Both the position numbers and the translations under genes were made by a program. Below the pieces are notes generated by a model that did no database searches, had not been told where the DNA came from, and saw nothing but the letters and a program-made list of their open reading frames with translations. Below are positions 8,543 through 34,620 of a stretch of DNA of 64,000 nucleotides, piece after piece. Origin of the DNA: a bacterium (GTDB lineage: Bacteria > Acidobacteriota > Thermoanaerobaculia > Multivoradales > JAHEKO01); NCBI GenBank assembly GCA_024224155.1, contig JAAENP010000114.1, forward strand, positions 2,014-66,013, given 5' to 3'. How positions within the stretch are numbered: position 1 is the stretch's first letter; the number at the start of each line of letters is the position of its first letter.

Positions 8543-8571
8543 GCCCCTCGGGCCCGAAAGGAGATCTGCCC

Positions 8572-12262: not shown

Positions 12263-12279
12263 GGCGCCGCAGGTCGACG

Positions 12280-12591: not shown

Positions 12592-12595
12592 GGCC

Positions 12596-13931: not shown

Positions 13932-13960
13932 TTCGGCCCGCGTGTCGGAAGCCTCTGGGC

Positions 13961-14132: not shown

Positions 14133-14168
14133 CTGGCCTCAGCGCGTCCGCGGCACATCTTCGAGCAA

Positions 14169-14410: not shown

Positions 14411-14419
14411 CGCTCCCCG

Positions 14420-14884: not shown

Positions 14885-14905
14885 TCGGATTCTCCCTCCG
14901 GCTCT

Positions 14906-15526: not shown

Positions 15527-15546
15527 CAGCCAGTCAGGAAGAAACC

Positions 15547-17273: not shown

Positions 17274-17294
17274 GTCACTCCCCGTTTTCCCGAA

Positions 17295-20188: not shown

Positions 20189-20210
20189 CTAAGGCTCTCC
20201 CAGACTGTCG

Positions 20211-21533
20211 TCAGGCCGCTTCCGATTGGGATGGTCCGTCGGTTCCGTTAACGCAGTGCAGCTCGCTCGCACTTCTGATCAGGAGGCATTCTCCGGCGAC
20301 CGCCGGCGAAGCCACGTAGCGTGCCTCAGGCAGGTAGTTGACCGCAATGGTCTGTCCATCATCGAGAGAGATCACCGATACCGCGCCGGTTTCGCCGGTG
20401 GCGTAGAGCTTGCCGGCACCCGCCAGGAGGGAGGCGCGATAGCCCGATCGTTCGAGGCGTTTCTGCCAGAGCATCTTGCCGGTCCGTGCGTCGAGACACC
20501 GCAGAATCCCCTTCTCGGTCAGAAGATAGAGCCGCCCGTTCAGCAGGATCGGAGACGAGGTGTCGGGCACCCACTTCGAGATCTCCCAGAGCAGTTTCCA
20601 GCTGGTCTTGCCCCCCTCTTCGACCACCTCCCAGCAACGCGCCTGGCGATGGGCGTGGGCGCCGCTGGCAACGCAAATCAGGTCGTCTTCCACGACCGGA
20701 CTCGCCACCGGCTGGGCGATCACCTGGTCTTCGCGCCGAAGCGCTTCACCCGTCTTCGGATCGAACGACACCACGTATCCCGCCAGAACGACAAAAAGCT
20801 CCGCAGCCTCCGATTCACTCCCGCCGCCGATCGCCAGCGGCGTAACGTACGAGCAGCAGCTGTCGTCCCACTGGTTCTTCCAGACCAGCTCACCGGTGGC
20901 CTTGTCGTAAGCCGTGATCCAACCGACGAGCTCTTCGGCTACGCGCTCACGGTCTCGAAGGACGATCACCAGGTCACCGGCCAGGATCAGCGACGACCCG
21001 GCCGCGTACCGCGCTTCCTTCAGGTAGGCCGGATCTATTTCGTTGACCCAGACCGGTTTGCCTCCGGCATCCAGCGCCGCGAGATGGGATCCGAAGTAAG
21101 CGAACGTGTGGTGCCCGTCACTCACCGGAGTCGGACCCGCCGAGCTGTTCATCCGGTGCATCTTCTCCCGCTTCCTGCGCGCCACCGTCGTCTGCCAAAG
21201 GCTCTCACCGCTGTTCAAGTCGAAGCTGTGCACCTGAAGCTCGACCCGATTGCCGACGGCCTTGGCGCTGGTCAAGATGACTCGGTCACCGACCGCGATC
21301 GGTGAAGACGTGCCGGTACCATCAATCCGGGCGCTCCACTTGATGCCTTCGCCGTTGCTATCCCAATGAACCGGCAGCTCCTCGGCGCTGGAAATACCCA
21401 GCCCGCCAGGACCGCGCCACTGCGGCCACGAGGCTCCGCCATCGCTCGATCCACAACCCACAAGCACGAGCCCGGCGCCCAAGGCAAGCAGCCGCAGCAT
21501 CAACAAAGGTCTCATCGCAAACCTCATGGTCAA
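20211..21533 (-). CDS. PQQ-like beta-propeller repeat lipoprotein (tandem paralog)
   Basis: Lipobox LVLVGC. It has the same WPQWRGPGG...SSPIAVGDRVILT layout as 18878-20188. Confidence 0.75.
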   Translation of the reverse strand: MTMRFAMRPLLMLRLLALGAGLVLVGCGSSDGGASWPQWRGPGGLGISSAEELPVHWDSNGEGIKWSARIDGTGTSSPIAVGDRVILTSAKAVGNRVELQVHSFDLNSGESLWQTTVARRKREKMHRMNSSAGPTPVSDGHHTFAYFGSHLAALDAGGKPVWVNEIDPAYLKEARYAAGSSLILAGDLVIVLRDRERVAEELVGWITAYDKATGELVWKNQWDDSCCSYVTPLAIGGGSESEAAELFVVLAGYVVSFDPKTGEALRREDQVIAQPVASPVVEDDLICVASGAHAHRQARCWEVVEEGGKTSWKLLWEISKWVPDTSSPILLNGRLYLLTEKGILRCLDARTGKMLWQKRLERSGYRASLLAGAGKLYATGETGAVSVISLDDGQTIAVNYLPEARYVASPAVAGECLLIRSASELHCVNGTDGPSQSEAA

Positions 21534-21563
21534 ACCTGACTCCAGGTCGAGGTCATCCGGACG

Positions 21564-23903
21564 CTAGTCCTGCTGGGCCCGGGTCAGCTCCCACAGTCGA
21601 CAGGGCTTCAGCGGGATCTCCAGGATCTCGATTCCGCTCTCGGCCAGCGCATCCTCGACAGCCTGGGCAAACAGCGGGCCCACCGGAATGGCACCGGCCT
21701 CGCCGGCCCCCTTGATGCCCAGGGGGTTGAGCGGCGAAGGTGTGGTCTGGTGACCGCTCTCGATACGTGGCACATCGAGCGCCGTCGGCAGCAGGTAGTC
21801 CATGAACGAAGCGTTCATGATCTGACCGTCTTCACTGAATACGACTTCTTCATAGAACGCGTTGCCGATTCCCTGCGCGACGCCGCCGTGGATCTGACCG
21901 TCCAGAATGAGCGGGTTGATGACCTCGCCACAGTCGTGCACGACGACGTAGCGCTGGATCTCGACGTCCAGACTCTCCGGGTCGATCTCGATAATCATGG
22001 CGTGTACGCCCGCCGCGGTGGCGCCTCGCTCCGGTCCGAAGTAGTCGGTAGCCTCCAGACCGGGCTCGGTTCCGGGTTCTACCGCTCCCCTCATCGGATT
22101 GGCCTTGAGCGCCAACTCGCCCAGCGGCAGTTCCTTGCCCGGCACGCCCTTGACTCGCACCTTGCCGTCCACGAGCTCGAGATCGGTCTCGGCGACTTCC
22201 AGCTCCCGGCCGGCAAACGCCAGGATCTTCTTGCGCACCGCCTTGGCGGCGGCATGGATCGCGTTTCCAGCGACCACGGCACCTCGAGACGCAAAGGTAC
22301 CGGCGCCCCAATGGAACAGGTCCGTGTCTCCGGTCGTGACTTCGACATCGCGAACATCGACGCCCACCTGGTCGGCGACCACCTGGGCAAACGACGTCAT
22401 GTGGCCCTGGCCCTGAGTGCCGATCCCGGTGGCGACCGCCACCTTCCCGGAAGCCTGGACCTGCACTCTCGCCCCCTCGTAGGGCCCGATTCCGGTCCCT
22501 TCGACGTAGGCGACCACTCCGATGCCGACCAGCTTGCCCTGGGCCCGCAGCGCCGGCTGGGTCTCTTGTATGAACTTCTGGTAGCCGATCTTCTCCAGCG
22601 CCTGGTCCAGAATCGGCTCATAGTTGCCGCTGTCGTAGACCAGCGGAGCGAAATCTTGATAGATGATCTCGTGATTGACCGGAAAAGACTCCGGGGCGAG
22701 GAAGTTGCGCCGGCGAATCTCCGCGCGGTCGATCCCGAGCTCACGCGCCGCGATATCCAGCAACCGCTCCATGACGAAGACGCCGTGCTGGCGCCCCGCG
22801 CCACGGTACGGAGTCACGATCGGCTTGGTCGTGAACACCGCCGTGAACTCGCTGGCGTAGTTGGGAACGTCGTAGCACCCCAGCAGCGTGCACTGACTGT
22901 TGATCGGGACGGTCAGGCCGTAGGGAGCGTAGGCGCCCGTGTCGTGAAGAAACGTGTCCTTGACTCCGAGGATCTTGCCGTCTCGGGTCACGGCGATCTC
23001 GGCATCGTGGATCTGGCCGCGTTCATGGGTGGTTGCGACGAAGTTCTCTTCCCGATCCTCGATCCACTTGACCGGTCGCTGGAGCGCCACCGAGGCCCAC
23101 GGAATCAGCACCTCTTCCGGGTAGAACATCATGATCTTGGGCCCAAAACCGCCGCCGATGAATGGCGCGATCACGCGCACTTGGCTCTCGGAGAGCCCGA
23201 GCATGGCCGCGATCCCGTTGCGGATCGGAATCGGAGCCTGGGTCGTGTCCCACATGGTCAACCGCTGGCCGCGGTCGTCCCAGTCGGCGACGACGCCGCG
23301 ATTCTCCATCGCGGCCGCGACGCCGTGATCGTAGGTGAAGCGACGGGCCAGAACCACGTCCGCCTCGGCCCGCGCGGATTCGTAATCGCCCTTCTGTTGG
23401 AAGACCCTCGCAGCTTCGTTCGTGTCGAGATCATCGTGGACCCGCGGAGCGCCCTCTTCGAGCGCCGCCTCGAGATCCACCACCGCATCGAGCGGCTCGT
23501 ACCTGACGAAGATCTCGGCCACCGCGTCCTCGGCAACGTAGCGATTCTCAGCCACGACCATCACCACGGGTTCGCCGACGTGGTGCACCTTGCCCTTGGC
23601 CAGGGGCACCTGGGTGCGCTGGTTGAATCGAATTCCCTCGATCGGCGGCGGCGGCACGAGAAGCGGCCCCGGCTGCCAGTAGTCCCCCAGATCCTCGGCC
23701 GTGTAGACCGCGATGACTCCCTCCCGCCCCAGGGCTCTCTGGGTATCGATGGCTCCGAGACGAGCGTGAGCGAACGGGCTGCGAACAAACGCCACGTGGA
23801 CCATGTCCTGGAGCTCGACATCGTCCACAAAAAGCGCGCGGCCGGTCAGAAGCCGCGGGTCTTCGTTGCGAGTGATGCGTTGGCCGAAGCTACGAGTCGA
23901 CAT
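21564..23903 (-). CDS. Orphan molybdenum hydroxylase large subunit (xanthine dehydrogenase / form II CoxL-like)
   Basis: MSTRSFGQRITRNEDPRLLTGRALFVDD N-terminus, 779 aa. The active-site loop is TPYRGAGRQHG. There are no adjacent S/M subunit genes. The start lies 4 nt after the upstream peptidase stop. Confidence 0.88.
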   Translation of the reverse strand: MSTRSFGQRITRNEDPRLLTGRALFVDDVELQDMVHVAFVRSPFAHARLGAIDTQRALGREGVIAVYTAEDLGDYWQPGPLLVPPPPIEGIRFNQRTQVPLAKGKVHHVGEPVVMVVAENRYVAEDAVAEIFVRYEPLDAVVDLEAALEEGAPRVHDDLDTNEAARVFQQKGDYESARAEADVVLARRFTYDHGVAAAMENRGVVADWDDRGQRLTMWDTTQAPIPIRNGIAAMLGLSESQVRVIAPFIGGGFGPKIMMFYPEEVLIPWASVALQRPVKWIEDREENFVATTHERGQIHDAEIAVTRDGKILGVKDTFLHDTGAYAPYGLTVPINSQCTLLGCYDVPNYASEFTAVFTTKPIVTPYRGAGRQHGVFVMERLLDIAARELGIDRAEIRRRNFLAPESFPVNHEIIYQDFAPLVYDSGNYEPILDQALEKIGYQKFIQETQPALRAQGKLVGIGVVAYVEGTGIGPYEGARVQVQASGKVAVATGIGTQGQGHMTSFAQVVADQVGVDVRDVEVTTGDTDLFHWGAGTFASRGAVVAGNAIHAAAKAVRKKILAFAGRELEVAETDLELVDGKVRVKGVPGKELPLGELALKANPMRGAVEPGTEPGLEATDYFGPERGATAAGVHAMIIEIDPESLDVEIQRYVVVHDCGEVINPLILDGQIHGGVAQGIGNAFYEEVVFSEDGQIMNASFMDYLLPTALDVPRIESGHQTTPSPLNPLGIKGAGEAGAIPVGPLFAQAVEDALAESGIEILEIPLKPCRLWELTRAQQD

Positions 23904-23907
23904 AGCG

Positions 23908-25605
23908 TTAGCTCGCCGGCGAGAGGTCGTCGGCCTGTGAGTAGATCGGCCGGATGTCCACGGGCACGTCGCCCAGGCGACTCACCGCTGCTACGAGCGC
24001 CTCGGACGCCACGCCGTAGGTATCGAGAAACTCCTTGGTGCCTTCGTAGTCTCCCTTCGCCTGCAGCATGAGCATGGTGTTGAGAAGATCTCGGATTCCT
24101 TCCGGGAACTTGTCCGACACCGCTCGGAAACGGCCCTCTTCATCGACCTCGAGCGCACCTTTCTCGAGCAGGAAGTTGAACTGCGCCACCACGCCGCGGC
24201 CGTGCGCCTCGTTGAGCCCGAATCGCGCAGAGCGGAAGAGTCCGGCAACGTAGGAGGGCTCGAGCGTGGCTCTGAAATCCGCCGCGATCTCGCCCTTCTC
24301 GATCAAGGCCAGCATGTTGTAGACCCCCATGACGTCGGCCTTGGCTTCCTCGAGGGTCGAGTAGACCTCCTTGAGCTCCAGGCGAACTTCGGTCTCGCGG
24401 CCGTCCTTGGTGATCTTGCCCGGGCCGAGCCCGTGACTCAGCTCGTGATGCAGGCTCTCGGCAAAGAAAGCGTCGAACGAGACGTGGTCGACCTGGTCGG
24501 CGGCAATCACTCGCTCGGCGATCGGTACCAAGATCTTCTCGAACTTGGCTCTCAGGACATTGCGCAACATGACCTTTTTCGAACCCTTTTCTTCGCGAAC
24601 CTTCTCGTCGTTGGGCAAGTTGAAGGCGAGCGTCTGCACGCCGGCTTTCGAGTCGCCCCCGACGTAGACCTCGTCGACGACCCGCATCGGGCTATCGGTA
24701 CCCCGTTCGTTCTTGAGCTCGTCCGGAATCGGGAGATTACTCTCGAGCCAGGGCAGCAAGCTCTTGAAGCGATCGAGCTTGGCCGACTCCTCCGGCAGGT
24801 TGACCGTGACGAAGGCTTCGAACGCCGCCTTGTAGCCGAACAGCCCATCCTCGTAGGTTTCATAGGGTCCGATCGTCACCTCGACCGGTGACTCCAGTTC
24901 CATCCAGTCGATGTCGCTCTGGTAGTAGTCGTCCGAGAAGAAGGCGTCGGCGCGCGAGTTGAGAAAGGTCCTGAGCGACTCGTTCTCGGTCATCTCGGCG
25001 GCCCGCCGCAGGTGCCCCGCGGCGGTCTCGAGATGTCCCTTGAAGAACTCCGAATAGGGCACCGCGACCAGCGCGTCACCTTCGCGGCGCACCATGGTGA
25101 AGAGCCCGGTCAGCGCCTCGCGGTCCTGGGGGTGCTCTTCGATCCAGGTCTCGAGCTCTTCCTTGGTCATGTCCTCCGGGTAGTAACCGGCGCCTTCGGG
25201 GTGTTTCGCATCTCCGATGAAGGGCTCGTCTTCGGCCAGGCGGTCCCAGGGGCCGAAGTTGATGTCGAAGAAGGCACGCAGATTCTCGTTTGCATCCGCA
25301 AGGTCGTCGCGCATCGCGGCGTTGCCGGCCCAGACCTGGGCGAGAAAGATTTCGTCCATGACCCGCCCGGCCTGAAGGATCTCCTTCAGGACTTCGATCT
25401 CGCCGTCGGGGACGCCGGAAAGATCCGCCGACAACTCGGTGGGCGCGTACTGTGCCAGGCGCTCGGCGATGTCGGCGGCGACCATGAGCCCACCGACCGT
25501 TTCGCCCGAGCCTGCCGTCGTCGGCTCCTCGGAAGGCGCACATGCCGTAACCAGCGCCATCGGGGCTATCAGGGCCAGGCCCAGCAATATCACCAGTTTC
25601 TTCAT
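23908..25605 (-). CDS. M49 (dipeptidyl-peptidase III)-like zinc metallopeptidase lipoprotein
   Basis: AAGGAG RBS, then MKKLVILLGLALIAPMALVTAC (lipobox). Zinc motifs HHELSHGLGPG (a pentapeptide HExxH) and EEAKADVMG (EExKAD-type). Confidence 0.7.
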   Translation of the reverse strand: MKKLVILLGLALIAPMALVTACAPSEEPTTAGSGETVGGLMVAADIAERLAQYAPTELSADLSGVPDGEIEVLKEILQAGRVMDEIFLAQVWAGNAAMRDDLADANENLRAFFDINFGPWDRLAEDEPFIGDAKHPEGAGYYPEDMTKEELETWIEEHPQDREALTGLFTMVRREGDALVAVPYSEFFKGHLETAAGHLRRAAEMTENESLRTFLNSRADAFFSDDYYQSDIDWMELESPVEVTIGPYETYEDGLFGYKAAFEAFVTVNLPEESAKLDRFKSLLPWLESNLPIPDELKNERGTDSPMRVVDEVYVGGDSKAGVQTLAFNLPNDEKVREEKGSKKVMLRNVLRAKFEKILVPIAERVIAADQVDHVSFDAFFAESLHHELSHGLGPGKITKDGRETEVRLELKEVYSTLEEAKADVMGVYNMLALIEKGEIAADFRATLEPSYVAGLFRSARFGLNEAHGRGVVAQFNFLLEKGALEVDEEGRFRAVSDKFPEGIRDLLNTMLMLQAKGDYEGTKEFLDTYGVASEALVAAVSRLGDVPVDIRPIYSQADDLSPAS

Positions 25606-25682
25606 CTGCTTGCACTCCTTTGAACTCCCTACTCTTCCACACTCCTCGCATGAAATCATCGCTTTTCCAATAGAGTCCCAGC

Positions 25683-26051
25683 GTGCTGCGAATGAGCGTT
25701 CGAGACTTCGAGCAAGCGGTGCGCCAGGCGCTCGAGAGGATTCCCAGCGACCTCCAGGAGGCGATCGAAAACGTCGCGGTGACCGTAGAGAACGAGCCCA
25801 GCGTCGACGACCTGCTCTCCGTAGGCCTGGATCCGGACACCGACACGCTCCTCGGCCTCTACCAGGGGGTGCCGCTACTCGAGCGCGGCCCCTCGACCTA
25901 CGGCCTGGACCTGCCCGACCGCATCGTCGTCTATCGCCGGCCGCTGCTCGAGCTGTGCGCCGACCGCGAAGAGCTCCTCACCGAGATCCGCGACACGGTG
26001 GTCCACGAGCTCGGCCACTACTTCGGGTTGCCGGAGGAAGAGCTGCCGTAG
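25683..26051 (+). CDS. Small zincin-like metallopeptidase family protein (DUF1025/Zincin_1-like)
   Basis: About 120 aa ending in IRDTVVHELGHYFGLPEEEL. Start is either GTG 25683 or ATG 25692. Confidence 0.7.
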   Translation: MLRMSVRDFEQAVRQALERIPSDLQEAIENVAVTVENEPSVDDLLSVGLDPDTDTLLGLYQGVPLLERGPSTYGLDLPDRIVVYRRPLLELCADREELLTEIRDTVVHELGHYFGLPEEELP

Positions 26052-26156
26052 CCTAGCGTTGCTGCGAACTCTGAGGCAGCTCGCAGCGCCAGTAGGCCGC
26101 GCCACTGGGCACCACAGACGAGCGGAGTCCGAGAGGCGTGAGGATTCACGGCCGAG

Positions 26157-26316
26157 CCGGCGTTGGGCTGCGCCAGGGGGCTCGACGCAAGCGCTCGCGC
26201 GGGCGTGTCGGAGGCCACTGGCGGCTTGCGCGAAGCGGCGCGCAGCCGAGGGCCCGACGCCGGTAGTCTGAGAAGCCCGAGGCGTCCCCGGAGCAGCCAA
26301 TACCGGGCGGCCGATC
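26157..26316 (+). repeat. MITE-like intergenic repeat family A, copy 2
   Basis: Aligns with 49517-49686. Shared features: ..GCCAGGGGGCTCG(A/C)CGCAAGCG.., the hairpin core GGCTTGCGCGAAGCGGCGCGCAGCC (26223-26247), GAGGGCC..ACGCC.., and GAGAAGCCCGAGGCGTCCCC. It ends 10 nt from the cyclase gene stop. Confidence 0.8.
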
Positions 26317-26325
26317 CTCACGCGG

Positions 26326-28035
26326 CTACGTTTGTTCCCGGAACGCCACGAACCGGCCCCAGCACGAGGCCAGCTCCATGCCGCGCTGGATGAAGGCGGC
26401 GATGTAGTAGCGGCCGGTCTCGGCATCGGCGATGGCGCCGCCGAGATTCTCGGCGTGGACGATGCCTTTCGGAAAGAGATTGAGGTGCATGTCCTGGTAG
26501 TACTTGTCCTGTGGGTAGACCTCGTCCCAGTCCTTGCCGTACTGGGCCTTGAGCTTGGCGTTCGCGACCGCGAACTGCCCGGGGTGGAAAATCCGCTGAA
26601 TGGTATTCATCGGGTGCTCCATCGCCACGCAGTCAATGCCCAGCCACTTGATCTTGCGCTCCACGCACCAGTCCGCGAACTCGGGCGACGGACCCGGATG
26701 CTGGATCATGTAGCGAAACTCGTCCGAGTCCGGACTGTTCCAGCCGTACTTGTACCAGCCCGCCTTGATCAGCAGGATGTCGCCATCGTGAAGGTCGACC
26801 TTCTCCTCGATCATCGCCGGGGTATAGACGCTCGAGTCGCTGACGTCTTCTGAAATATCCACGATGACTCCGGGGCCGTGCCAGTGGTCGAGCGGCACCT
26901 CGCCGATGGTCCGACCCGCCGCCCAGAAGTGCTTCTCCCCGTCCATGTGGGTGGCGAGGTGGAAGCTGGCGCGGCAGTGCGCGTTGTTCCGGCCCAGACC
27001 CAGATCCTGACCTCCGACCCGCTTGGTGTACTTGATCGACAGCGGCTCGTAGTTCGCCCACTGCGGCGTCTGGACGCTGAACGGCAACGTCATGTCGAGC
27101 ATCTCGACCGCGTTCATCGCGGCAAGAAACTCCGACTCGTCGCCCCCGTCGGCCCCGTCGGCCCCGTCGGCCCCGTCGCCACCATTGCTTGGAGCCAGCG
27201 CTACCACCCGGCTCCAGGCGGACTCCACCTCCATGAAGGGCAGCGGCGGAACGAAGAACCAGGCCCGCCGGTTCAAGAGCTCGTCGATCTCGCCACCGAG
27301 AGCCTCGAGCAGCAGCAGGCCCGCCTTCGGCATGGTCCGATGGGTCAAGCCGTAGTATTCATCGCTCGGAAACAGCTCGTCCCAGCTCTTGCCGGTGGCC
27401 TCGCGAGCGAGAGCCTCGGCCTTGTCGAACTCGGCTTTGTGGAGGCGACGGACGTGGGTGTTCATCGGATGCTCGGCCGAGCCGCAGTCGACGCCCACGA
27501 CCTTGAGTTTCATCTCGAGCGCCCAGGGGAAGAAGTCGGGCGACGGGCCGGGGTGGCGCACGTGGTAGCCGAACTCCTTGTTCTCGATTCCACCCTGGGC
27601 CTCGGCGTTGGCCACGTCCGGCTGGTCATAGGCATAGCGGTGATAGCCGGTATGAACGATGAGGATGTCACCCTCTTTGACCGCCACCTGCTCGGTAACC
27701 ATCTCGGGAGTGTAAAAGCCGTAGTCGGAGACCGCATCCGAAACATCCGCGACCACGCCTTCGCCACAGAGATCGGTCAACGGGATGTCGGCGATGGCTC
27801 GGGCGCCGGAGTGAAAAGCCCTCGGTCCCACCAGATGGGTGCCCGAGTTGTTGCTCCATTCGATGAGCTGACCGTTGGCGCCCTGGCCACCATGCCAGGA
27901 GCCCGTCAGGCGCTTGAAGAAATGGACCTGAAGCGGCATCTCGCCGGGACAGGGCGGCGTGAAGATGGACAGCGGCTGGGTCAAGTCGTACCAGCGAGCG
28001 TCGGCAAGAAGTTCGATGGCGTCGTTACGGTTCAT
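26326..28035 (-). CDS. Tandem-duplicated putative cyclase / arylformamidase-like (kynurenine formamidase fold) protein
   Basis: AAGGAGG RBS, 569 aa. Two homologous halves: FYTPEMVTEQVAVKEGDILIVHTGYHRY...HPGPSPDFFPWALEMKLKVVGVDCGSAEHPMNT and VYTPAMIEEKVDLHDGDILLIKAGWYKY...HPGPSPEFADWCVERKIKWLGIDCVAMEHPMNT. The metal motif is intact in the C-terminal half (FHLATHMDGEKH) and degenerate in the N-terminal half (SGTHLVGPRAFH). Confidence 0.7.
   Translation of the reverse strand: MNRNDAIELLADARWYDLTQPLSIFTPPCPGEMPLQVHFFKRLTGSWHGGQGANGQLIEWSNNSGTHLVGPRAFHSGARAIADIPLTDLCGEGVVADVSDAVSDYGFYTPEMVTEQVAVKEGDILIVHTGYHRYAYDQPDVANAEAQGGIENKEFGYHVRHPGPSPDFFPWALEMKLKVVGVDCGSAEHPMNTHVRRLHKAEFDKAEALAREATGKSWDELFPSDEYYGLTHRTMPKAGLLLLEALGGEIDELLNRRAWFFVPPLPFMEVESAWSRVVALAPSNGGDGADGADGADGGDESEFLAAMNAVEMLDMTLPFSVQTPQWANYEPLSIKYTKRVGGQDLGLGRNNAHCRASFHLATHMDGEKHFWAAGRTIGEVPLDHWHGPGVIVDISEDVSDSSVYTPAMIEEKVDLHDGDILLIKAGWYKYGWNSPDSDEFRYMIQHPGPSPEFADWCVERKIKWLGIDCVAMEHPMNTIQRIFHPGQFAVANAKLKAQYGKDWDEVYPQDKYYQDMHLNLFPKGIVHAENLGGAIADAETGRYYIAAFIQRGMELASCWGRFVAFREQT
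27139..27180. repeat. 9-nt tandem repeat inside the cyclase inter-domain linker
   Basis: GTCGGCCCC occurs as three perfect units (27148-27174) flanked by imperfect units. It encodes GDGADGADGADGGDE. Confidence 0.9.
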
Positions 28036-28053
28036 GGTTGCGAGTCCTCCTTG

Positions 28054-29298
28054 TCAAGAAAGACCGTAGCGGTCGGCGTAGGCTATGAGTGCTTGCTCGA
28101 AAATCTCCATCGGCGGCCTGACCAACCCCGCCCCGACCTGCCCGACACCAGCCTCGCGGTGAGCGATGCCGGTGTTCACTCGCGGAGTGATCCCGAGCTC
28201 GACCACCCGGCGCACATCAATACCGGTCGGTGAGCCGCGAAAGTCGAGCGGCGGGATGGTGAAGTGCGAATGCTCGCCAAATGTGATCTCGTACATCTCG
28301 AGGGTGGCGTCGAGGGCGTCATGGGGCTTGCCTGAGACGAACTGCACGATCGCCGGTGCCGCGGCCATGGCGAAGGCGCCGATACCCGCGGTCTCGGTAA
28401 TGGTCGAGTCGCCGATGTCTGGGTTGGCGTCGGCGGCCGTAAAGCCCGAAAAGTAGAGGCCGTCTGGAGTCGCCGCCGGCGCCGTGAACCACTCGCCCTC
28501 CAGGCCCGAGACGCGGATCCCGAAATCGGTGCCGTTCCGAGCCATGGCCGTGACAATGGTCGAGCCCTCGATCCCGTGGCCGGCGTCGGCCATCGCTTTG
28601 CACGCCGCCATCACCGGGTTCAAGACCGAAAGGGCATTGTCACCGAGGAATTCGATCACCTTGCGTCGAGTCGAGGCCTCGGCCGAGCTCTCCGCGATGT
28701 GCGGCGCCAGGAGCTTGGCGAAAAGAAGCGATCCCGCCTTGTTGCGATTGTGCCCCTCATCGCCCATGTGCAAGGCCTCGGCCAGCAGAGCCCGAATGTC
28801 GAGCCCTCCCGCCGCCTCGATGGCCGTTTTGACGACCGGCCCCATCTCGTCGTTCATCCAGCGGAGCTTGTCGAGGACCTCGGGTGCGTAGGCACCGTAC
28901 CGAAGCACCTTGCCGTAGCCCTCGTTGAGGTTCGAGTAGGCCAAGTTGCCGTGGGTCTCGTTTTCGACCACGTAGACCGCCATCGACGGCGACGTGACAC
29001 CGGCCATCGGGCCGACCGCGCCGTGGTGATGGCAGGGGTCGAAATCGATCGCGCCCGATGAAGCCAACTCCTCGGCCGCGGCCTGGTTGTCGGCCCAGCC
29101 CTCGAAGATCGCGGCGCCGATCACCGCCCCGCGCATCGGCCCCGACATGCGCTGCCACTCGATCGGGGGTCCGGCGTGAAGTAGCCTGCGCTCCTGGAGC
29201 GCTGGAATCACGTCGGAGGCCCGGGCTATTGTCTTGAGAATCGGCCTGGCGCCGATCATCCGCTCGACCGTCTGCTGATTGGCTTGCTCGACGTTCAC
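28054..29298 (-). CDS. ylbE: DUF1116 family protein (YlbE/AllG-like)
   Basis: GTG start, 414 aa. LLHAGPPIEWQRMSGPMRGA, DPCHHHGAVGPMAGV, NLNEGYGKVLRYGAY, TAMARNGTDFGIRVSGL and NTGIAHREAGVGQVGAG match my recollection of E. coli YlbE along the whole length. Confidence 0.8.
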   Translation of the reverse strand: MNVEQANQQTVERMIGARPILKTIARASDVIPALQERRLLHAGPPIEWQRMSGPMRGAVIGAAIFEGWADNQAAAEELASSGAIDFDPCHHHGAVGPMAGVTSPSMAVYVVENETHGNLAYSNLNEGYGKVLRYGAYAPEVLDKLRWMNDEMGPVVKTAIEAAGGLDIRALLAEALHMGDEGHNRNKAGSLLFAKLLAPHIAESSAEASTRRKVIEFLGDNALSVLNPVMAACKAMADAGHGIEGSTIVTAMARNGTDFGIRVSGLEGEWFTAPAATPDGLYFSGFTAADANPDIGDSTITETAGIGAFAMAAAPAIVQFVSGKPHDALDATLEMYEITFGEHSHFTIPPLDFRGSPTGIDVRRVVELGITPRVNTGIAHREAGVGQVGAGLVRPPMEIFEQALIAYADRYGLS

Positions 29299-29331
29299 TT
29301 GAGAACTGCTCCTCTCGACAAGGGAATCAAC

Positions 29332-31020
29332 CTAGCCGATCTTGGCCAGGATCGCCTGAAGTCTCTCGTTGCCTCCCGCCGGCGGCCGCCACTCGACATG
29401 AACCACCGCCGCGTCCTGGGCGACAAGACTGTCGTGAAAGTGCTCGAGCCCGACGTTGATGCACGACACGGGGTCGAGCGGATCGAGCTCGACAGGGTGC
29501 TCCGGCCGAAGAACCGCGGGTGAGACTCGCTCCGCCACGAACCCAACCAGCTCCTCGGTGGAGCGAAAGACCGCGGCGCCGGCCAGCTCCAACTCCTCGA
29601 TCTGCGCGACCAGATCCTGCGGGTCGCTTTCGGTGCCGATCACCACGACTCCCACCTCGACGCCGGAACGCTCGCTCGAATCCCGCAAAGCCTGGCGAAT
29701 CACCGGCGCGAGCTCGGCCGCGGGGTTCGGATGAGCGCCGTCACCGAGCACCAGGTCGAGCAGGATGAGTCGGGTCGCCGGGTCGGAAGCCTCCTGCGCG
29801 ATGCGGCGCTGTCTCAGGTCGGAATCGATCATCGGATGGGGTCGCCCGACGGTGAACTCATCGGCACCCAGGTCCAGAATGGCATGGCCCGCGCTACGCT
29901 CGATCGAAGCGGCCGCAACTCCCTCGACTCCCAGGTTCGACGTCAACGGCGCCAGCAGGAATCTCAGGGCCTGGGTGACCTCGAGAGCCAAGGTACCCCC
30001 GGAGAACAGCCCCCGTACGAAACCTTCATCGAAAGGCTCCCCGCTGCGAGCTGAAACACCCGAGAACGAAGGTGTGTTCGCCAGTAACTCGACGGCCCGG
30101 TCGGCGGCGCCCTTGAGACTGGGAGCAAACCAGAGATTCGAAAGCGTTTCGAGCGGCGGCGCGGTGCCACTCAACGAAACCACCACCGGCTTGCCCGTAG
30201 CGCGTGCCGCCGCCAAGACCTTGGCTGCGACTTCCGGAGCCGGAGGCTTCGAGATCAACACGATGACGCGGGTCTCGGGGTCCCGCGCCAGCAGGTCGAG
30301 CGCTTGCAGCGTCGTCACTGCCGCGACCTCCCGGGACAGATCCCGACCCCCCGTCCCGATGGCTTGTGAAATCCCGGCTCCGAGGTCGTCGATGCGGCTC
30401 GCCACCGCCTGCAGGCCGGTCCCGGAGGCCGCGACAATCCCGACGCCTCCCCGTCGAACCCGATTGGCGAAGCCCAATCCAACGCCTCCGATGGTCGCAG
30501 TACCGCAGTCCGGTCCCATCACCAGGAGGCCCCGCTCTCGAGCCTCGAGTTTGAGCTCGACCTCGTCTTCGCCGGTCACATTGTCGCTGTAAAGAAAGAC
30601 GTGCCGACCGGCCCGAATCGCTTCGCGAGCCACCTGGGCGGCATAGCGACCGGGCACCGACACCAGCACCCAGCGCGAGTTGGGCGATCCTTCGAGCGCG
30701 GTGCGCAGACTCTTGGGCCGGAATGCGGCGACCTCGGAGTCTGCGCTTCTTGACATCAGGCGATCGACTTGTGCCAGAGCTTCGGCGGCAGCGACCTCGG
30801 ACTCGGCGCGCACCACGATCAAGAGGTCGTCCGGCCCGACCCCGGACAAGGCCTCGGGCAGCAGCGCACCGGCTGCCAGCAGCTCGAGGTTGGCCTCGGT
30901 CGCCATCACCACGCCGGCATCCTCGATGCCATCGAGCTTTGCCAGCGCGCTCTGGAGCTGCATCAAGACGATGGAATCAGCGTAGGCGCCACGGCGAATC
31001 TGGTGTCCAACTTGCGGCAT
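29332..31020 (-). CDS. fdrA: FdrA (AllF)-like acyl-CoA synthetase / succinyl-CoA synthetase alpha-like protein
   Basis: An internal Met at 31020 gives MPQVGHQIRRGAYADSIVLMQLQ..., the FdrA-type N-terminus (about 563 aa). CoA-binding and CoA-ligase-like segments are present (VSVPGRYAA, GPDCGTA, GIVAASGTGLQ). The start lies 4 nt after the amidase stop. Confidence 0.8.
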   Translation of the reverse strand: MPQVGHQIRRGAYADSIVLMQLQSALAKLDGIEDAGVVMATEANLELLAAGALLPEALSGVGPDDLLIVVRAESEVAAAEALAQVDRLMSRSADSEVAAFRPKSLRTALEGSPNSRWVLVSVPGRYAAQVAREAIRAGRHVFLYSDNVTGEDEVELKLEARERGLLVMGPDCGTATIGGVGLGFANRVRRGGVGIVAASGTGLQAVASRIDDLGAGISQAIGTGGRDLSREVAAVTTLQALDLLARDPETRVIVLISKPPAPEVAAKVLAAARATGKPVVVSLSGTAPPLETLSNLWFAPSLKGAADRAVELLANTPSFSGVSARSGEPFDEGFVRGLFSGGTLALEVTQALRFLLAPLTSNLGVEGVAAASIERSAGHAILDLGADEFTVGRPHPMIDSDLRQRRIAQEASDPATRLILLDLVLGDGAHPNPAAELAPVIRQALRDSSERSGVEVGVVVIGTESDPQDLVAQIEELELAGAAVFRSTEELVGFVAERVSPAVLRPEHPVELDPLDPVSCINVGLEHFHDSLVAQDAAVVHVEWRPPAGGNERLQAILAKIG

Positions 31021-31024
31021 CGCG

Positions 31025-32323
31025 CTAGCTCGAGCTTCTCGCCAGCGCTCGCTCGATCTCGAGGCCCCAGCTGAAGAGCCGCTCGTCCTGTCGCGACCGA
31101 GCCGCGACCTGGAGACCGATCGGCAAACCACCGGTGCCGGTCCCGGCCGGAATCGCGAGCGTCGGTAATCCGCAGTGCGTCCAGGGAAGATTCATGATCG
31201 GATCGCCGGTGGAGCGGAGTCCGTGGGGCGCGACTCCGGGCGCCGCCGGCGAAATCCACAGATCGAGGCCCCAGGTCGTCATCAGAGACTCGAGCTCGTC
31301 GCGCAACGACTCGCACCCGACGAGCGCGGTCTGCAGCTCGGAGTCCGAGATCCTCGAGCCCTCCTCGATCAAAAGCGCCGTCTTGGGATGGTAGAGATCT
31401 TGAAACCGTGAGTACCATTGTGCGTGAACCCTCGCCGCCTCCGCGGCGACTATGGCGCCATGGCGCACCTCGATCGCCTCGAAGTCCGCCATGACCTCGA
31501 CTCGGCGCACGTCGAAACCGGCACCTGTCAGGTGCTGGCACAGTTCGCGAAACCAACTGCGAGCCTCGCTTCCGGCGCGGCGCAGATAGGGACCGCCGGG
31601 AATTCCCAACACCGGGCGCCGCTCCTCGTAGAGCCTCTCCCAGCCTTCGCAAACCACCGCGGCGACGCGCTCGGCACCGGCAACGTCCGGTGCGAAGAAG
31701 CCGATGTGGTCGACCGACGGCGCCAGCGGAATGACGCCCTCGCGGGAAGCTCGATCGTAGGTGGGCTTGAAGCCCACGACGCCACAGTAGGAGGCCGGTC
31801 TCGAGATCGAACCGATCGTCTGAGTTCCCAGTGCGAGTGGACACAGGCCCGCCGCAACTGCCGCGGCGGAACCGGAAGACGAGCCGCCCGGTGTATGAGC
31901 CGGATCGTGCGGGTTCTTGGTCGAAGCGGGCGCGAAATAGGCGAACTCGGTGGTAGCGGTCTTGCCGAGAATCAGCGCGCCGGACCGGCGCAACCGAGTG
32001 ACCGCTTTCGCCTCCGGCCCCGCGAGCTCCTCCGGTGGCAAGCGGCTGCCGCCGGCCGTCGGAAAGCCGTCAACGTGAAATATGTCTTTGACTCCCACGG
32101 GAAGTCCGAAGAGCGGGGGCCGGGGAGTGCCCTGAGGGAATCGCTCGAGGAGGTCCCGCGCGTCTCGCCGCAGGCGCTCGAAACGTCCTTCCTCCGGGAC
32201 GAAGGCATGCAGCTTGGGCTCGCGCTCCCGGAACAGCGCTTCCAGCTCCTCGAGATAGTCGGTCAGTGCCACGGCCCCGGAGTGCAAGGAAGCGCTGGTG
32301 CTGCCAAGGTCGGTTGTCTTCAT
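31025..32323 (-). CDS. Amidase signature (AS) family amidase
   Basis: GGSSSGSAAAVAAGLCPLALGTQTIGSISRPASYCGVVGFKPT, the Ser-cisSer-Lys AS signature. The start overlaps the upstream stop (ATGA). Confidence 0.88.
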   Translation of the reverse strand: MKTTDLGSTSASLHSGAVALTDYLEELEALFREREPKLHAFVPEEGRFERLRRDARDLLERFPQGTPRPPLFGLPVGVKDIFHVDGFPTAGGSRLPPEELAGPEAKAVTRLRRSGALILGKTATTEFAYFAPASTKNPHDPAHTPGGSSSGSAAAVAAGLCPLALGTQTIGSISRPASYCGVVGFKPTYDRASREGVIPLAPSVDHIGFFAPDVAGAERVAAVVCEGWERLYEERRPVLGIPGGPYLRRAGSEARSWFRELCQHLTGAGFDVRRVEVMADFEAIEVRHGAIVAAEAARVHAQWYSRFQDLYHPKTALLIEEGSRISDSELQTALVGCESLRDELESLMTTWGLDLWISPAAPGVAPHGLRSTGDPIMNLPWTHCGLPTLAIPAGTGTGGLPIGLQVAARSRQDERLFSWGLEIERALARSSS

Positions 32324-32805
32324 GCGCTAGCGCTTCGCATTCGCTCCGCGGCCAGCAGCACCGCATCGACAATGTGCTGATATCCGGTGCATCGGCAGAG
32401 ATTGCCCGAAAGCGCCGCACGCACTTCCGCCTCGGTCGGGTTCTGGTTGTTTTCCAGAAACGGCACCATGGTCATCAGGATCCCGGCGGTGCAGAAACCG
32501 CATTGCAGAGCGTGCGCGTCGCGAAACGCGGTCTGGACAGGGTGCAGCTCGTCGACCGAGGGCGCCAGCCCCTCGACGGTGGCGAGCTTGCGCCCATCGG
32601 ACTGCACGGCAAAGAGCAGACAGGACCGCACCGGCGCTCCGTCCAGAAGCACCGTGCAGGCTCCGCACACACCGTGCTCGCATCCGACGTGGGTTCCGGT
32701 GAGACCCAGCTCGTGGCGCAGAAAATCCGAAAGCAGCTGGCGGGATTCGACCTCGCGCTCGTAGGCTCGGCCGTTGACCTCGGTGGAAACGACGTGCCGG
32801 CTCAT
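32320..32805 (-). CDS. Molybdenum hydroxylase [2Fe-2S] small subunit
   Basis: ATG at 32805 preceded by GAAGGTGG. Motifs CEHGVCGACTV, QCGFCTAG and CRCTGY. Confidence 0.9.
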   Translation of the reverse strand: MSRHVVSTEVNGRAYEREVESRQLLSDFLRHELGLTGTHVGCEHGVCGACTVLLDGAPVRSCLLFAVQSDGRKLATVEGLAPSVDELHPVQTAFRDAHALQCGFCTAGILMTMVPFLENNQNPTEAEVRAALSGNLCRCTGYQHIVDAVLLAAERMRSASA

Positions 32806-32809
32806 GACT

Positions 32810-33688
32810 TCATGCCACCTTCGCTCGATCAAGCGCCGTTGCCAGCACGCGGCGGGTCAGTGCTTCGGCCAGGTGGCGCTTAAAGGCCGCGGTCGCGTGG
32901 ATATCATCGCTCGGATCGACCTCGTCGCGGCCGGCCGTCAATGCTGCCTCCGCGAAGAGCTCCTCGGACGGCTGCTCGCCCTCGAGAATGGCACAGGCCC
33001 GGACGGCGGACATCGGAACCTCGCCGGCGCTCAGATAGACCAGCCGCGCGGCCGAGATCTTGCCGTCATCGCCCAGGGTCAGTCGCGCGGCGACCCCGGC
33101 GTGGGCGTAGTCGCCATGCCGGCGCGCGATCTCGCGGAACTCCCAACCGGTCCGGCGCGGCGTAGCCCGCACCCTGAGCTCGCAGAGCAGCTCGTCCTCG
33201 GCAAGTGCCGTGGTCATCAGGCCCTGACAGAAATCGGCGGCCGGCACGGTGCGCTCGCCGCGATGGCTTCTCAAGACGAGCTCCGCTTCGAGAGCCACTG
33301 CCGCCACCGGCAACTCCCCCGAGGGATCGGCGTGCGCGAGGCTTCCGCCCACGGTGCCACGGTTTCGGATCTGGGGGTGTGCGATGAGCGGCATGGTCAC
33401 CGCCAGCAGCGGGACCTGCCCGTGAACCCGGGTGTCTAGCTCGAGCCGGCGCTGTCGAGCCATCGCCCCGATGCGAACCGATCCATCATCTTCCACCTCG
33501 ATGTAGTCGAGCTCATCGACACCGTTGAGATCCACCAGGAAGGTAGGTTGCGCCAACCGGAAGTTGAGGACCGGAACCAAACTCTGACCACCGGCGAGCA
33601 CCTTGGCCTCGCCTCCCTTTTCGGCCAGAAGCCCGAGCGTCTCATCCAGTGAGCCGGGGGCGAGGTAGTCAAAGGGCGGAGGCTTCAT
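32810..33688 (-). CDS. Molybdenum hydroxylase FAD-binding medium subunit
   Basis: MKPPPFDYLAPGSLDETLGLLAEKGGEAKVLAGGQSLVPVLNFRLAQP and GTVGGSLAHADP. Confidence 0.9.
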   Translation of the reverse strand: MKPPPFDYLAPGSLDETLGLLAEKGGEAKVLAGGQSLVPVLNFRLAQPTFLVDLNGVDELDYIEVEDDGSVRIGAMARQRRLELDTRVHGQVPLLAVTMPLIAHPQIRNRGTVGGSLAHADPSGELPVAAVALEAELVLRSHRGERTVPAADFCQGLMTTALAEDELLCELRVRATPRRTGWEFREIARRHGDYAHAGVAARLTLGDDGKISAARLVYLSAGEVPMSAVRACAILEGEQPSEELFAEAALTAGRDEVDPSDDIHATAAFKRHLAEALTRRVLATALDRAKVA

Positions 33689-33778
33689 GCCGCAACCCGA
33701 GTTCTGAAAAACGATACCGAGACTTGTTTGCTCAAGTGGCTACACTAGCAAAATGTTAGCGTTCACAGGAGGCCTTTG

Positions 33779-34198
33779 ATGCTCCCCGTACGCGACGATC
33801 TGGTCATTCCCGAGCGCGAGCTGACCTATCGCTCGTCCCGGAGCTCGGGTCCCGGAGGACAGAACGTCAACAAGGTAGAGACCCGAGTGACACTTCTGTT
33901 CGACGTCTCGGCATCGACCGTCCTCCACGAGTCCCAGAAGGCGCGTCTCCGGCGCCGCCTGACGACGCGAATCAGCAAAGCCGGCGTACTGAGAGTCGTG
34001 TCACAAAAGCACCGTACTCAGGGAGCCAACCGGGAAGCGGCCAGAGCCAGACTCTCCGAGCTCCTGGCAGAAGCGCTCGAACCCGAACGCCGGCGCCGGC
34101 GCACGAGGACGCCCGAGAGGGCCAGGCGCAAGCGGCTGGAGGAGAAGAAACGGCGGGGTGACCTCAAGCGCGGTCGAGGGCAGGTGCGCGAGCCTTGA
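33779..34198 (+). CDS. arfB: Alternative ribosome-rescue factor ArfB (peptidyl-tRNA hydrolase, GGQ domain)
   Basis: CAGGAGG RBS. SSGPGGQNVNKVETRV GGQ motif and a basic C-terminal tail (RRRRRTRTPERARRKRLEEKKRRG). Confidence 0.9.
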   Translation: MLPVRDDLVIPERELTYRSSRSSGPGGQNVNKVETRVTLLFDVSASTVLHESQKARLRRRLTTRISKAGVLRVVSQKHRTQGANREAARARLSELLAEALEPERRRRRTRTPERARRKRLEEKKRRGDLKRGRGQVREP

Positions 34199-34620
34199 GC
34201 GGCCAAGATCGGGAGACCCACGTCGTCTTCTACGATGGGGTCTGCGGTCTGTGCGACCGCACGGTCCAGCTGCTTCTGAGAATCGACCGCACTCGTGCTC
34301 TGTCGTTCGCGCCTCTCCAGGGTAAGGCGGCGGCGGAGCTGAAGCGCAGACACCGAATCACCCGGGACTTGAAAACCCTGTTGTTCGTCGAGAGCTACGG
34401 CACCGACCGGGAGCTCGTCTCCTCTCACTCGACAGGAGTGCTTCGAATACTCGCCCGGCTCGGGGGCGTCTGGGGCGCCGTCTCGTGGTTGAGAATCGTA
34501 CCGCGACCGCTACGAGACCTCGTCTACCGAACCGTCGCCCGCCATCGCTATCACTGGTTCGGCCGATTCGACCACTGCAAGCTGCCCGACGCCGACCTCT
34601 CGGATCGTTTTCTGGACTGA
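34195..34620 (+). CDS. Thiol-disulfide oxidoreductase DCC family protein (DUF393)
   Basis: VVFYDGVCGLCDRTVQLLLRIDR (DxxCxxC). The TTG start overlaps the arfB stop. Confidence 0.8.
   Translation: MSGQDRETHVVFYDGVCGLCDRTVQLLLRIDRTRALSFAPLQGKAAAELKRRHRITRDLKTLLFVESYGTDRELVSSHSTGVLRILARLGGVWGAVSWLRIVPRPLRDLVYRTVARHRYHWFGRFDHCKLPDADLSDRFLD

Follow-up and report, generated by a model that had tools for sequence, protein, structure and literature searches.

A conserved cluster of molybdenum-hydroxylase, AllF/AllG, amidase, and cyclase-fold genes in Acidobacteriota, Chloroflexota, and Gemmatimonadota, with a proposed role in oxidative pyrimidine degradation

A six-gene operon and its displaced large subunit

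We analyzed a stretch of 64,000 nucleotides (here called the window) of contig JAAENP010000114.1 from a member of the Thermoanaerobaculia, phylum Acidobacteriota (assembly GCA_024224155.1). Between positions 26326 and 33688, six intact minus-strand open reading frames encode the flavin adenine dinucleotide (FAD) and 2x[2Fe-2S] (FeS) subunits of a molybdenum (Mo) hydroxylase, an amidase, homologues of the Escherichia coli proteins AllF (FdrA) and AllG (DUF1116), and a tandem cyclase-fold protein, Cyc2 (Table 1). Together with the gene for a Mo-hydroxylase large subunit, MoL, these six genes represent, in the Thermoanaerobaculia, a seven-gene catabolic cluster that is widely conserved and present in hundreds of uncultured bacteria. 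Domains were assigned with Pfam and NCBIfam, and junctions were taken directly from the nucleotide sequence. The FAD gene stop is followed after 4 nt by the FeS gene ATG, the FeS and amidase genes overlap in an ATGA, and another 4 nt separate the amidase stop from the FdrA ATG at 31020. A 33-nt spacer carrying GAGAGGAG, a ribosome-binding site, precedes the GTG of AllG, and an 18-nt spacer carrying AAGGAGG precedes the ATG of Cyc2. The six genes thus form a genuine, tightly packed operon. The initial annotation, an earlier note on this DNA, had described tight junctions, the same domain identities, and a single coupled unit; the junctions and the Pfam and NCBIfam assignments agree with it, and conserved synteny (see below) further supports the coupling.

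An alternative start of FdrA, a GTG at 31131 proposed by an open reading frame finder, was rejected since the alignment with E. coli AllF begins at 30999. The operon ends at the Cyc2 gene because the next gene, Zincin_1, lies convergently on the plus strand within the 666-nt gap 3′ of the Cyc2 stop. The Zincin_1 gene is outside the pathway and separates the operon from the unit that contains MoL. An open reading frame of 183 aa at 25875-26426 was not accepted as a gene, being antisense to the Zincin_1 gene and overlapping the 3′ end of Cyc2. A consensus scan of positions 21000-34300 returned zero promoter-like sites, which is uninformative because the consensus is that of sigma-70 and the organism does not follow it; the same scan returned two terminator-like sites, both within coding sequence. 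A scan of the whole window against Rfam found no riboswitch or other RNA family.

TABLE 1 Coordinates of genes in the window and (last two rows) of two related loci
Feature	Position	Strand	Length	Domains and remarks
FAD-binding medium subunit of Mo hydroxylase (CoxM/QorM type)	32810..33688	-	292 aa	First gene of operon; PF00941 (FAD_binding_5) 156 bits, PF03450 (CO_deh_flav_C) 76 bits
2x[2Fe-2S] small subunit	32320..32805	-	161 aa	PF01799 (Fer2_2) and PF00111 (Fer2)
Amidase-signature amidase, malonamidase-E2 type	31025..32323	-	432 aa	PF01425 237 bits
FdrA/AllF homologue	29332..31020	-	562 aa	NF004760 510 bits (cutoff 433)
AllG (DUF1116/YlbE) homologue	28054..29298	-	414 aa	GTG start; PF06545 324 bits
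Tandem cyclase-fold protein Cyc2	26326..28035	-	569 aa	Last gene of operon; two PF04199 domains
Zincin_1 gene	25683..26051	+		PF06262 2e-27; convergent
M49-like protein gene	23908..25659	-		Weak partial match to PF03571 (3.6e-16); stops 4 nt upstream of MoL
Molybdopterin large subunit MoL	21564..23903	-	779 aa	PF02738, PF20256, PF01315; NF040766 937 (cutoff 950)
Second complete Mo-hydroxylase cluster	7838-13931	+		CoxG, FeS, L, FAD, XdhC, MocA-like
CoxG	7838-8542	+		Second Mo-hydroxylase cluster
FeS subunit	8530-9045	+		Second Mo-hydroxylase cluster; probable ATG near 8572
Large subunit	about 9039-11402	+		Second Mo-hydroxylase cluster
FAD subunit	11402-12262	+		Second Mo-hydroxylase cluster
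MocA-like cytidylyltransferase	13314-13931	+		Second Mo-hydroxylase cluster
L222, Anaerolineales metagenome-assembled genome	3241-14127	one strand		Carbamate kinase-FAD-FeS-Amid-FdrA-AllG-Cyc-MoL-AllH
L230, Anaerolineaceae bacterium BD1	4052-18530	one strand		Cluster, then NmrA-like, AllH, uracil-type permease, cytosine-deaminase-like gene

All subunits of a three-subunit Mo hydroxylase of the xanthine oxidase family (CoxLMS/QorLMS type) are present and intact in the window, namely the FAD (M), 2x[2Fe-2S] (S), and Mo-cofactor large (L) subunits. The FAD subunit keeps its AGGQSL motif and is 46 to 84% identical to the FAD genes of related clusters, and the FeS subunit has both cluster motifs (CxxxxCxxC...C and CxxC...CxC) with all 8 Cys, so that, as first annotated, S and M are not decaying remnants. 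The PYRGAGR loop and the GAGE motif with its catalytic Glu are both found in MoL, and a check of the Mo-enzyme subunits also found GGGFG. It lies 2.4 kb downstream of the six-gene operon on the same strand, in a separate second unit (18878-25659) that comprises the M49-like gene, MoL, and two lipoprotein-like PQQ_2 beta-propeller genes. The initial annotation counted the large subunit as missing from the operon; this absence proves to be a local rearrangement. In 22 related loci a large-subunit gene stands ≤300 nt downstream of the cyclase gene; MoL is 68 to 76% identical to these, while the other large subunit of the window is only 37 to 40% identical to them. That other subunit belongs to a self-contained plus-strand Mo-hydroxylase cluster (Table 1), and the S and M subunits of the operon therefore need a partner of their own. 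Judging by sequence, MoL is the orthologous catalytic partner of the operon's S and M subunits. Among the related loci compared, the Zincin_1 and M49-like genes (the latter with no NCBIfam match) were confined to the closest Thermoanaerobaculia relatives, and only there (L002 and L083) was the packing of the M49-like, MoL, and PQQ_2 genes kept; displacement of MoL in the window is thus a lineage-specific insertion of the Zincin_1 and M49-like genes.

The closest structures to MoL in the PDB are CoxL (8uem, 1e-156) and quinoline 2-oxidoreductase (Qor; 1t3q, 1e-149). Like QorLMS and form-II CoxL-type Mo hydroxylases, the enzyme has three separate subunits and the PYRGAGR loop and GAGE Glu, and accessory genes of the XdhC, CoxG, and MocA types are found both in related clusters and in other parts of the window. 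Unlike in those systems, the canonical cluster splits the subunit genes around other genes (M-S ... L), and in the window the subunit genes are spread over two transcription units.

Conservation across genomes

Neighborhood searches used one genome per species and three anchors, for about 236 loci in total: the best 80 of 249 relatives of the tandem cyclase, the best 80 relatives of AllG, and 77 new loci drawn from 412 relatives of a single-domain cyclase. All three anchors returned the canonical order FAD-FeS-amidase-FdrA-AllG-cyclase-MoL in Chloroflexota, Acidobacteriota, and Gemmatimonadota, and the window has the same order with MoL alone displaced. Among 105 nonredundant AllG loci, FdrA was found in 85, a cyclase-family gene in 82, MoL in 59, FAD in 52, FeS in 48, and the amidase in 43, many contigs being truncated; the best 80 AllG orthologues are 69 to 90% identical to that of the window. 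The 77 single-domain-cyclase loci carry AllG (67), MoL (64), FdrA (56), the amidase (52), FeS (49), and FAD (48), as well as XdhC (33), AllH (25), and an NCS2 permease (18). The conservation of the neighborhood on which the initial annotation had staked its interpretation is thus borne out independently from each anchor.

This pattern bears on a counterproposal, that the juxtaposition is functionally meaningless and places an aldehyde- or CO-type Mo enzyme beside unrelated hydrolases. The best NCBIfam names point that way (glyceraldehyde dehydrogenase subunits for S and M and aerobic CO dehydrogenase group 5 for L), as does the position of MoL in a separate unit, but every one of these profiles scored below its cutoff; for MoL, the CO dehydrogenase (CODH) profiles gave 937 versus 950 (NF040766, "group 5") and 562 versus 991 (TIGR02416). 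The form-I CODH signature VAYRCSFR, with its Cu-binding Cys, is absent from MoL, where the loop reads TPYRGAGR. Since, moreover, the gene order is kept in well over 150 loci of at least three phyla, whichever anchor is used, we find a chance assembly hardly credible.

The best 80 Cyc2 relatives, 70 to 91% identical, come from Acidobacteriota (Thermoanaerobaculia), Chloroflexota (Anaerolineae), "Candidatus Uabimicrobium," and a few other metagenome-assembled genomes (MAGs). About half of the Cyc2 loci carry AllG, FdrA, MoL, FAD, FeS, and the amidase within 10 kb. Lone Cyc2 genes, still 70 to 80% identical, occur in unrelated neighborhoods (e.g., L007, L013, L018, L069, L079, and both "Ca. Uabimicrobium" genomes). 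Seven MAGs with an isolated Cyc2 gene keep an AllG cluster elsewhere, either on a different contig or, on the same contig, at a distance of 570 kb (L025/L084, L026/L085, L004/L090, L010/L107, L063/L108, L017/L124, and L066/L136).

Clusters of Chloroflexota (e.g., L019, L041, L047, L052, L053, L125, and L152) are often broken by small insertions, which we read by eye rather than with hidden Markov models as PIN-domain genes, nucleotidyltransferase/HEPN-like pairs, GxxExxY-type proteins, and a 160-aa four-helix protein. These insertions suggest that cassettes resembling toxin-antitoxin systems frequently enter the Chloroflexota operons.

A literature search found no description of the cluster, the nearest works being papers on E. 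coli AllFGH and a MAG study of nitrifiers; a paper on a reductive uric acid pathway concerns unrelated genes (PMC12507026). The cluster is real and widespread and apparently undescribed, although its parts belong to known families.

The AllF/AllG module

FdrA is 38.6% identical to E. coli AllF over its full length (567 columns; PDB 3dmy, E. coli FdrA, 2e-96), and AllG is 51% identical to E. coli AllG (PDB 3clq, 3e-131). Two subunits of the AllFGH system are therefore present, adjacent (33 nt) and in the same order as in E. coli. Searches of the 64-kb window found neither AllH (YlbF/DUF2877; tblastn with E. coli AllH and four AllH homologues from related clusters) nor a carbamate kinase (AllK). 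The earlier observation that FdrA and DUF1116 stand without their usual partners accordingly holds for this lineage, but it does not extend to the family: AllH (PF11392, 8e-19) was found in 16 loci of an initial set of 159 and in 25 of the 77 added later, in many Anaerolineales clusters just downstream of MoL, and AllK in one locus. For the window's own genome, AllH may still lie outside the 64 kb. No homologue of AllD was found in the window or in the 159 related loci searched. With AllH, AllK, and allantoin genes not found, the window does not hold a full AllFGH system, and with AllD missing and AllK nearly so, the cluster is not the allantoin/oxamate branch of E. coli, though the enzyme type is the same.

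The purified AllF-AllG-AllH complex of E. coli has been shown experimentally to be an oxamate carbamoyltransferase acting on an N-acylurea (Kim and Kim, 2024; PMC11326118). Oxalurate is its only proven substrate, and the same work argues that urease-negative bacteria recover ureido nitrogen by this transcarbamylase route (PMC11326118). Like the AllFGH-AllK branch of anaerobic allantoin degradation, the module described here is proposed to phosphorolyze an N-acylurea to carbamoyl phosphate and a dicarboxylate half-amide. It differs in that its genes are embedded among those for Mo-hydroxylase subunits, a cyclase-fold hydrolase, and an amidase; in that the proposed substrate, ureidomalonate, is one carbon longer than oxalurate; and in its hosts, which are Acidobacteriota, Chloroflexota, and Gemmatimonadota rather than enterobacteria and enterococci. 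The analogy suggests that AllF/AllG of the cluster may act on ureidomalonate as a homologue of oxalurate.

A different role for the pair should be considered. FdrA has CoA_binding and Ligase_CoA domains, resembles the alpha subunit of succinyl-coenzyme A (succinyl-CoA) synthetase, and is still named "acyl-CoA synthetase FdrA" in NCBIfam. FdrA/AllG might then be an enzyme similar to NDP-forming acyl-CoA synthetases, acting on the CoA thioester of a ring-opened acid, with the amidase removing the ureido group in the manner of ureidomalonase. The lack of AllH and carbamate kinase in the window would suit such an enzyme, and ureidomalonase of the classical oxidative pyrimidine pathway is itself an amidase-signature enzyme. 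Nevertheless, the only experiments reported for the family showed purified AllF-AllG-AllH to be a transcarbamylase, and AllH accompanies the pair in ~40 related clusters and carbamate kinase in one. Furthermore, the clusters already possess CoA-activating enzymes (a MatB-like ligase and a family III CoA-transferase), and the motif of the amidase is that of a half-amide (malonamate) hydrolase and not of the allophanate or ureide type. We consider an acyl-CoA synthetase role improbable and prefer a transcarbamylase for FdrA/AllG.

The amidase and the cyclase-fold hydrolase

Among characterized structures, the amidase is closest to malonamidase E2 (MAE2) of Bradyrhizobium japonicum (PDB 1ock, E value of 3e-48 over residues 66-430 of 432). 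In the alignment with 1ock, LGTQTIGSISRPA stands against LGTQTGGSVIRPA, with LGTQT and GS-x-x-R-PA common to both. The window protein thus has the Ser-cisSer-Lys core of amidase-signature enzymes with GTQT and an Arg at Ser+3, where ordinary members have GGSIR-x-PA. We take the corresponding residue of MAE2, Arg158, to bind the carboxylate of malonamate, although a literature search on malonamidase E2 gave nothing documenting this. Further likenesses to MAE2 (1ock, 1o9o) are the compact size of 412 to 414 aa, GTQT in place of GT/SDT, and the Arg three residues past the nucleophilic Ser (GSxxRPA for the window protein and GGSVIRPA for MAE2). The moderate bit score marks a distant relative, and the genomic context differs. 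The motif GTQT...GS-x-x-RPA recurs in 45 of 49 cluster amidases, and we propose that the enzyme is a malonamate (dicarboxylate half-amide) amidase. In 13 loci a CN-hydrolase, encoded between FdrA and AllG, replaces the amidase, a nonorthologous displacement of the amide-hydrolysis step.

Cyc2 contains two PF04199 domains, only one of which has the metal-binding motif of the family. The C-domain is intact (FHLATHMDGEKHF), with all four ligand positions of HxGTHxDxPxH (HxxTHxDxxxH), while the N-domain reads SNNxGTHxVGPRAFH (NNSGTHLVGPRAFH; SNNSGTHLVGPRAFH) and has lost the first His and the Asp, two of the four metal residues. The altered N-domain motif is invariant in 25 orthologues of 75 to 92% identity. 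We infer that Cyc2 is a fused pseudo-dimer with one catalytic site, and we propose that it acts as a ring-opening amidohydrolase. The tandem protein had been listed as an oddity of the locus; in most Anaerolineales clusters, however, a single-domain cyclase of 260 aa with an intact motif fills the same slot between AllG and MoL. The idea that the tandem cyclase replaces AllH was rejected, as AllH co-occurs with both single and tandem cyclases.

An AlphaFold2 model of Cyc2 (predicted local distance difference test score of 72; predicted template modeling [TM] score of 0.78) had low confidence in both metal loops (24-63 and 320-376) and was not used for active-site geometry. In a Foldseek search with this model, the only significant neighbors were kynurenine formamidase, isatin hydrolase, and other PF04199 proteins (E value of ~1e-10; TM score of 0.6 to 0.74 on the target), and a sequence-level search likewise returned isatin hydrolase and kynurenine formamidase. 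The kynurenine formamidase equivalog TIGR03035 gave 55.8 bits against a cutoff of 223, and the neighbors are AllG and MoL, with no kynurenine-pathway gene among those annotated. Cyc2 therefore shares the fold and the C-domain metal motif with kynurenine formamidase (KynB) and isatin hydrolase but differs from them in its tandem fusion (569 aa versus about 210 to 260 aa), in its degenerate yet invariant N-domain, in its conservation (70 to 91%) across phyla, and in a context of AllG and MoL rather than tryptophan catabolism. In the interdomain linker (27123-27189, minus strand), three copies of GACGGGGCC encode (GAD)3 within a Gly/Asp/Ala-rich stretch; orthologues, at 554 to 567 aa, do not have this insertion.

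Accessory genes and the choice of substrate

We asked what the genes accompanying the cluster in related loci indicate about its substrate. An AMP-forming ligase downstream of MoL or AllH is MatB-like by its best profile, NF005702 (malonyl-CoA synthase; 529 bits, versus 433 for the next family), and by its PDB matches, with MatB (4fuq) at 387 bits compared to 252 for oxalyl-CoA synthetase. A family III CoA-transferase is also frequent. NCS2 permeases, for which uracil permease is the best family, were found in 13 loci and in the 18 counted above. Residues F73, E241, H245, and G289-E290 of UraA (positions verified on the K-12 sequence) are conserved in the 13 aligned permease loci; we take E241, H245, and E290 to be the residues through which UraA binds uracil, with F73 and G289 as presumed further ligands. 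The permeases of Chloroflexota clusters show the uracil-type pattern (E...H, GEN). In L230 the permease is followed by a gene for a cytosine-deaminase-like amidohydrolase, which occurs in 4 other loci as well. Other transporters include BMP-type ABC nucleoside transporters (~10 loci), NCS1 permeases (3 loci), and LctP. The accessory genes favor pyrimidines and malonate over the purine, allantoin, oxamate, nicotinate, and isatin substrates named in the initial annotation, whose general idea of an undescribed route for an N-heterocycle or ureide fits the evidence.

A purine-derived route would use the same enzymes differently. The Mo hydroxylase would act on xanthine, urate, or an oxidized ring such as parabanate, the cyclase would yield oxalurate, AllF/AllG would be a true oxamate carbamoyltransferase, and the amidase would convert oxamate to oxalate. 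This has the merit of giving AllF/AllG the sole proven AllFGH substrate, and oxamate could, in principle, be accepted by an MAE2-like amidase whose Arg binds a carboxylate. In a close relative, an NCS2 permease gene downstream of MoL and a PQQ gene (L002, 17826-19148; L082, 19103-20425; the two overlap on one contig and count as one locus) encodes a xanthine/urate-type pattern (E...D, SQN); in addition, the NCS1 permeases are closest to allantoin permease, and formyl-CoA/oxalate CoA-transferase is among the weaker matches of the family III CoA-transferase. Against these stand uracil-type permeases in about 31 loci versus the single xanthine-type locus, a ligase that is MatB-like and not oxalyl-CoA-synthetase-like, and the missing AllD in the 159 loci, among whose recurrent neighbor families no allantoinase or allantoate amidohydrolase was found. 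MoL also matches true xanthine dehydrogenases over residues 12-405 only (E value of ~1e-43), whereas CoxL and quinoline 2-oxidoreductase match at about 1e-150 or better. The L002/L082 permease may mean that the substrate differs between lineages, or it may be unrelated to the cluster. We regard a purine route as having a rather small chance of being correct.

The same enzyme logic (hydroxylation, ring hydrolysis, acylurea phosphorolysis, and amide hydrolysis) could instead serve another heterocycle, be it a different pyrimidine, some cyclic imide or ureide, a base carrying a modification, or a xenobiotic. The enzyme families set the types of reaction and not the substrate; the transporters are mixed (UraA-type, NCS1, BMP-type ABC, and LctP); and a uracil model leaves the conserved NmrA-like, thiolase-like, and CoxG genes without a role. 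A nitrifier MAG study, in which allFGHK adjoin genes for biuret and triuret, likewise suggests a broader range of acylureas (PMC12625717). On the other side, four clues agree on uracil and malonate: the amidase motif of the MAE2 type, the ligase resembling MatB, the ligand residues of UraA, and the gene similar to those for cytosine deaminases. Another heterocycle is thus unlikely, though with an appreciable chance, and we continue with uracil as the favored candidate.

A proposed oxidative pyrimidine pathway

We propose that the Mo hydroxylase would act on a pyrimidine base, with uracil or thymine the likeliest, and hydroxylate it at C6 to (5-methyl)barbiturate, its electrons passing through the two [2Fe-2S] clusters to FAD. 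The cyclase-fold metal hydrolase would then open this cyclic ureide to the N-acylurea ureidomalonate, much as isatin hydrolase opens a lactam. In the tandem protein the intact C-terminal site would carry out this step, and the degenerate N-domain would serve as the second subunit of the usual dimer. AllF and AllG (with AllH in some clusters) would use phosphate to cleave ureidomalonate to carbamoyl phosphate and malonamate, as AllFGH cleaves oxalurate. The MAE2-type amidase, or the CN-hydrolase in some lineages, would convert malonamate to malonate and ammonia, and in relatives the MatB-like ligase or family III CoA-transferase would activate the malonate. The net result would be the oxidative breakdown of pyrimidines with carbamoyl phosphate, and not urea, as a product.

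The classical oxidative pyrimidine pathway, known from Rhodococcus, Mycobacterium, and Corynebacterium, proceeds through uracil/thymine dehydrogenase, barbiturase, and ureidomalonase. The Rhodococcus dehydrogenase has subunits of about 91, 36, and 21 kDa, as a Mo hydroxylase would have. Passages of PMC3758960 and PMC4051656 mention this pathway. With it the proposed route would share barbiturate, ureidomalonate, and malonate, a three-subunit Mo/FAD/FeS dehydrogenase, and an amidase-signature enzyme. It would depart from it in having a cyclase-fold hydrolase in the ring-opening slot, in releasing the ureido group as carbamoyl phosphate and not as urea, and in an amidase probably of the malonamidase type and not a ureidomalonase. 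No match to barbiturase (AtzD/TrzD family) was found among the ~40 window proteins scanned against Pfam, and the recurrent neighbor families annotated in related loci include no barbiturase-like protein, the rest of the genome not having been searched; with no barbiturase found, the window does not qualify as an instance of the classical pathway.

Several observations weigh against this proposal. We know of no cyclase-family enzyme that hydrolyzes barbiturate, and about half of the tandem-cyclase genes sit outside the cluster. The sequence of MoL does not reveal the substrate, the closest enzymes being CoxL and quinoline oxidoreductase. Clues to the substrate come mostly from Chloroflexota orthologues that are 50 to 75% identical, and the window itself lacks a transporter, a MatB-like gene, a CoA-transferase, AllH, and carbamate kinase; even among relatives, MatB-like genes are limited to about 25 loci, and carbamate kinase was found in only 1 of ~236 (L222; 36% identical to AllK of E. 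coli, with the FAD gene starting 62 nt downstream). A further point on this side is that the sole permease close to the cluster in a near relative of the window, that of L002/L082, is of the xanthine/urate type and not of the uracil type. In E. coli, AllH is needed for activity in vivo (PMC11326118).

In favor of the proposal, the model gives a role to all seven core genes, and five independent accessory clues fit it. The order of steps and all substrates come from inference on sequence, and degradation of a nucleobase (our best guess is uracil) by this pathway strikes us as an evenly balanced proposition. Included in that estimate, and falling somewhat short of even, is the fuller version, namely, that the cluster represents an unrecognized oxidative pyrimidine pathway widespread in uncultured Chloroflexota, Acidobacteriota, and Gemmatimonadota.

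Other features of the window

In the second Mo-hydroxylase cluster, an 898-aa open reading frame (8706-11402) was rejected as an N-terminally extended large subunit, its first ~110 residues being the out-of-frame FeS gene. XdhC of that cluster lies in two frames at 12280-13327 (plus strand), with an N-terminal domain at 12280-12591 and a Rossmann domain at 12512-13327 that overlap by ~80 nt; this is either a frameshift (an assembly error or a pseudogene) or two separate genes. A gene of the MogA type for molybdopterin biosynthesis (MoCF_biosynth; 39844-40356, minus strand) lies 6 kb away on the upstream side of the operon, in keeping with the presence of two Mo-enzyme clusters in the window. 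A 757-aa protein encoded at 49797-52070 (plus strand) joins a pyridine-nucleotide-disulfide oxidoreductase domain to AIRS/AIRS_C domains and looks like a fusion protein of SelD (selenophosphate synthetase). The sole tRNA of the window is a tRNA-Leu at 63082.

Implications

Uracil/thymine dehydrogenase activity has been known since the 1950s, and to our knowledge no genes have so far been assigned to it. If the proposed pathway is correct, the cluster would supply these gene identities, and a cyclase-fold hydrolase would replace barbiturase. The AllFGH class of transcarbamylases, a recent discovery, would gain a second substrate (as a "malonamate carbamoyltransferase") and would be a general module for acylurea phosphorolysis, not one specific to allantoin. 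With the ureido group saved as carbamoyl phosphate, and hence ATP, and not lost as urea, this would be a fourth bacterial way to degrade uracil, in addition to the reductive route, the Rut route, and the classical oxidative one, and it would explain how organisms that lack urease can gain nitrogen as well as ATP from the ring. The bases of pyrimidine and purine type are major currencies of organic nitrogen in sediments, soils, and wastewater sludge, where the Anaerolineae, Thermoanaerobaculia, and Gemmatimonadota with the cluster live. Even if our guess at the substrate is wrong, the cluster stands as a robust, conserved, and apparently undescribed pathway unit.

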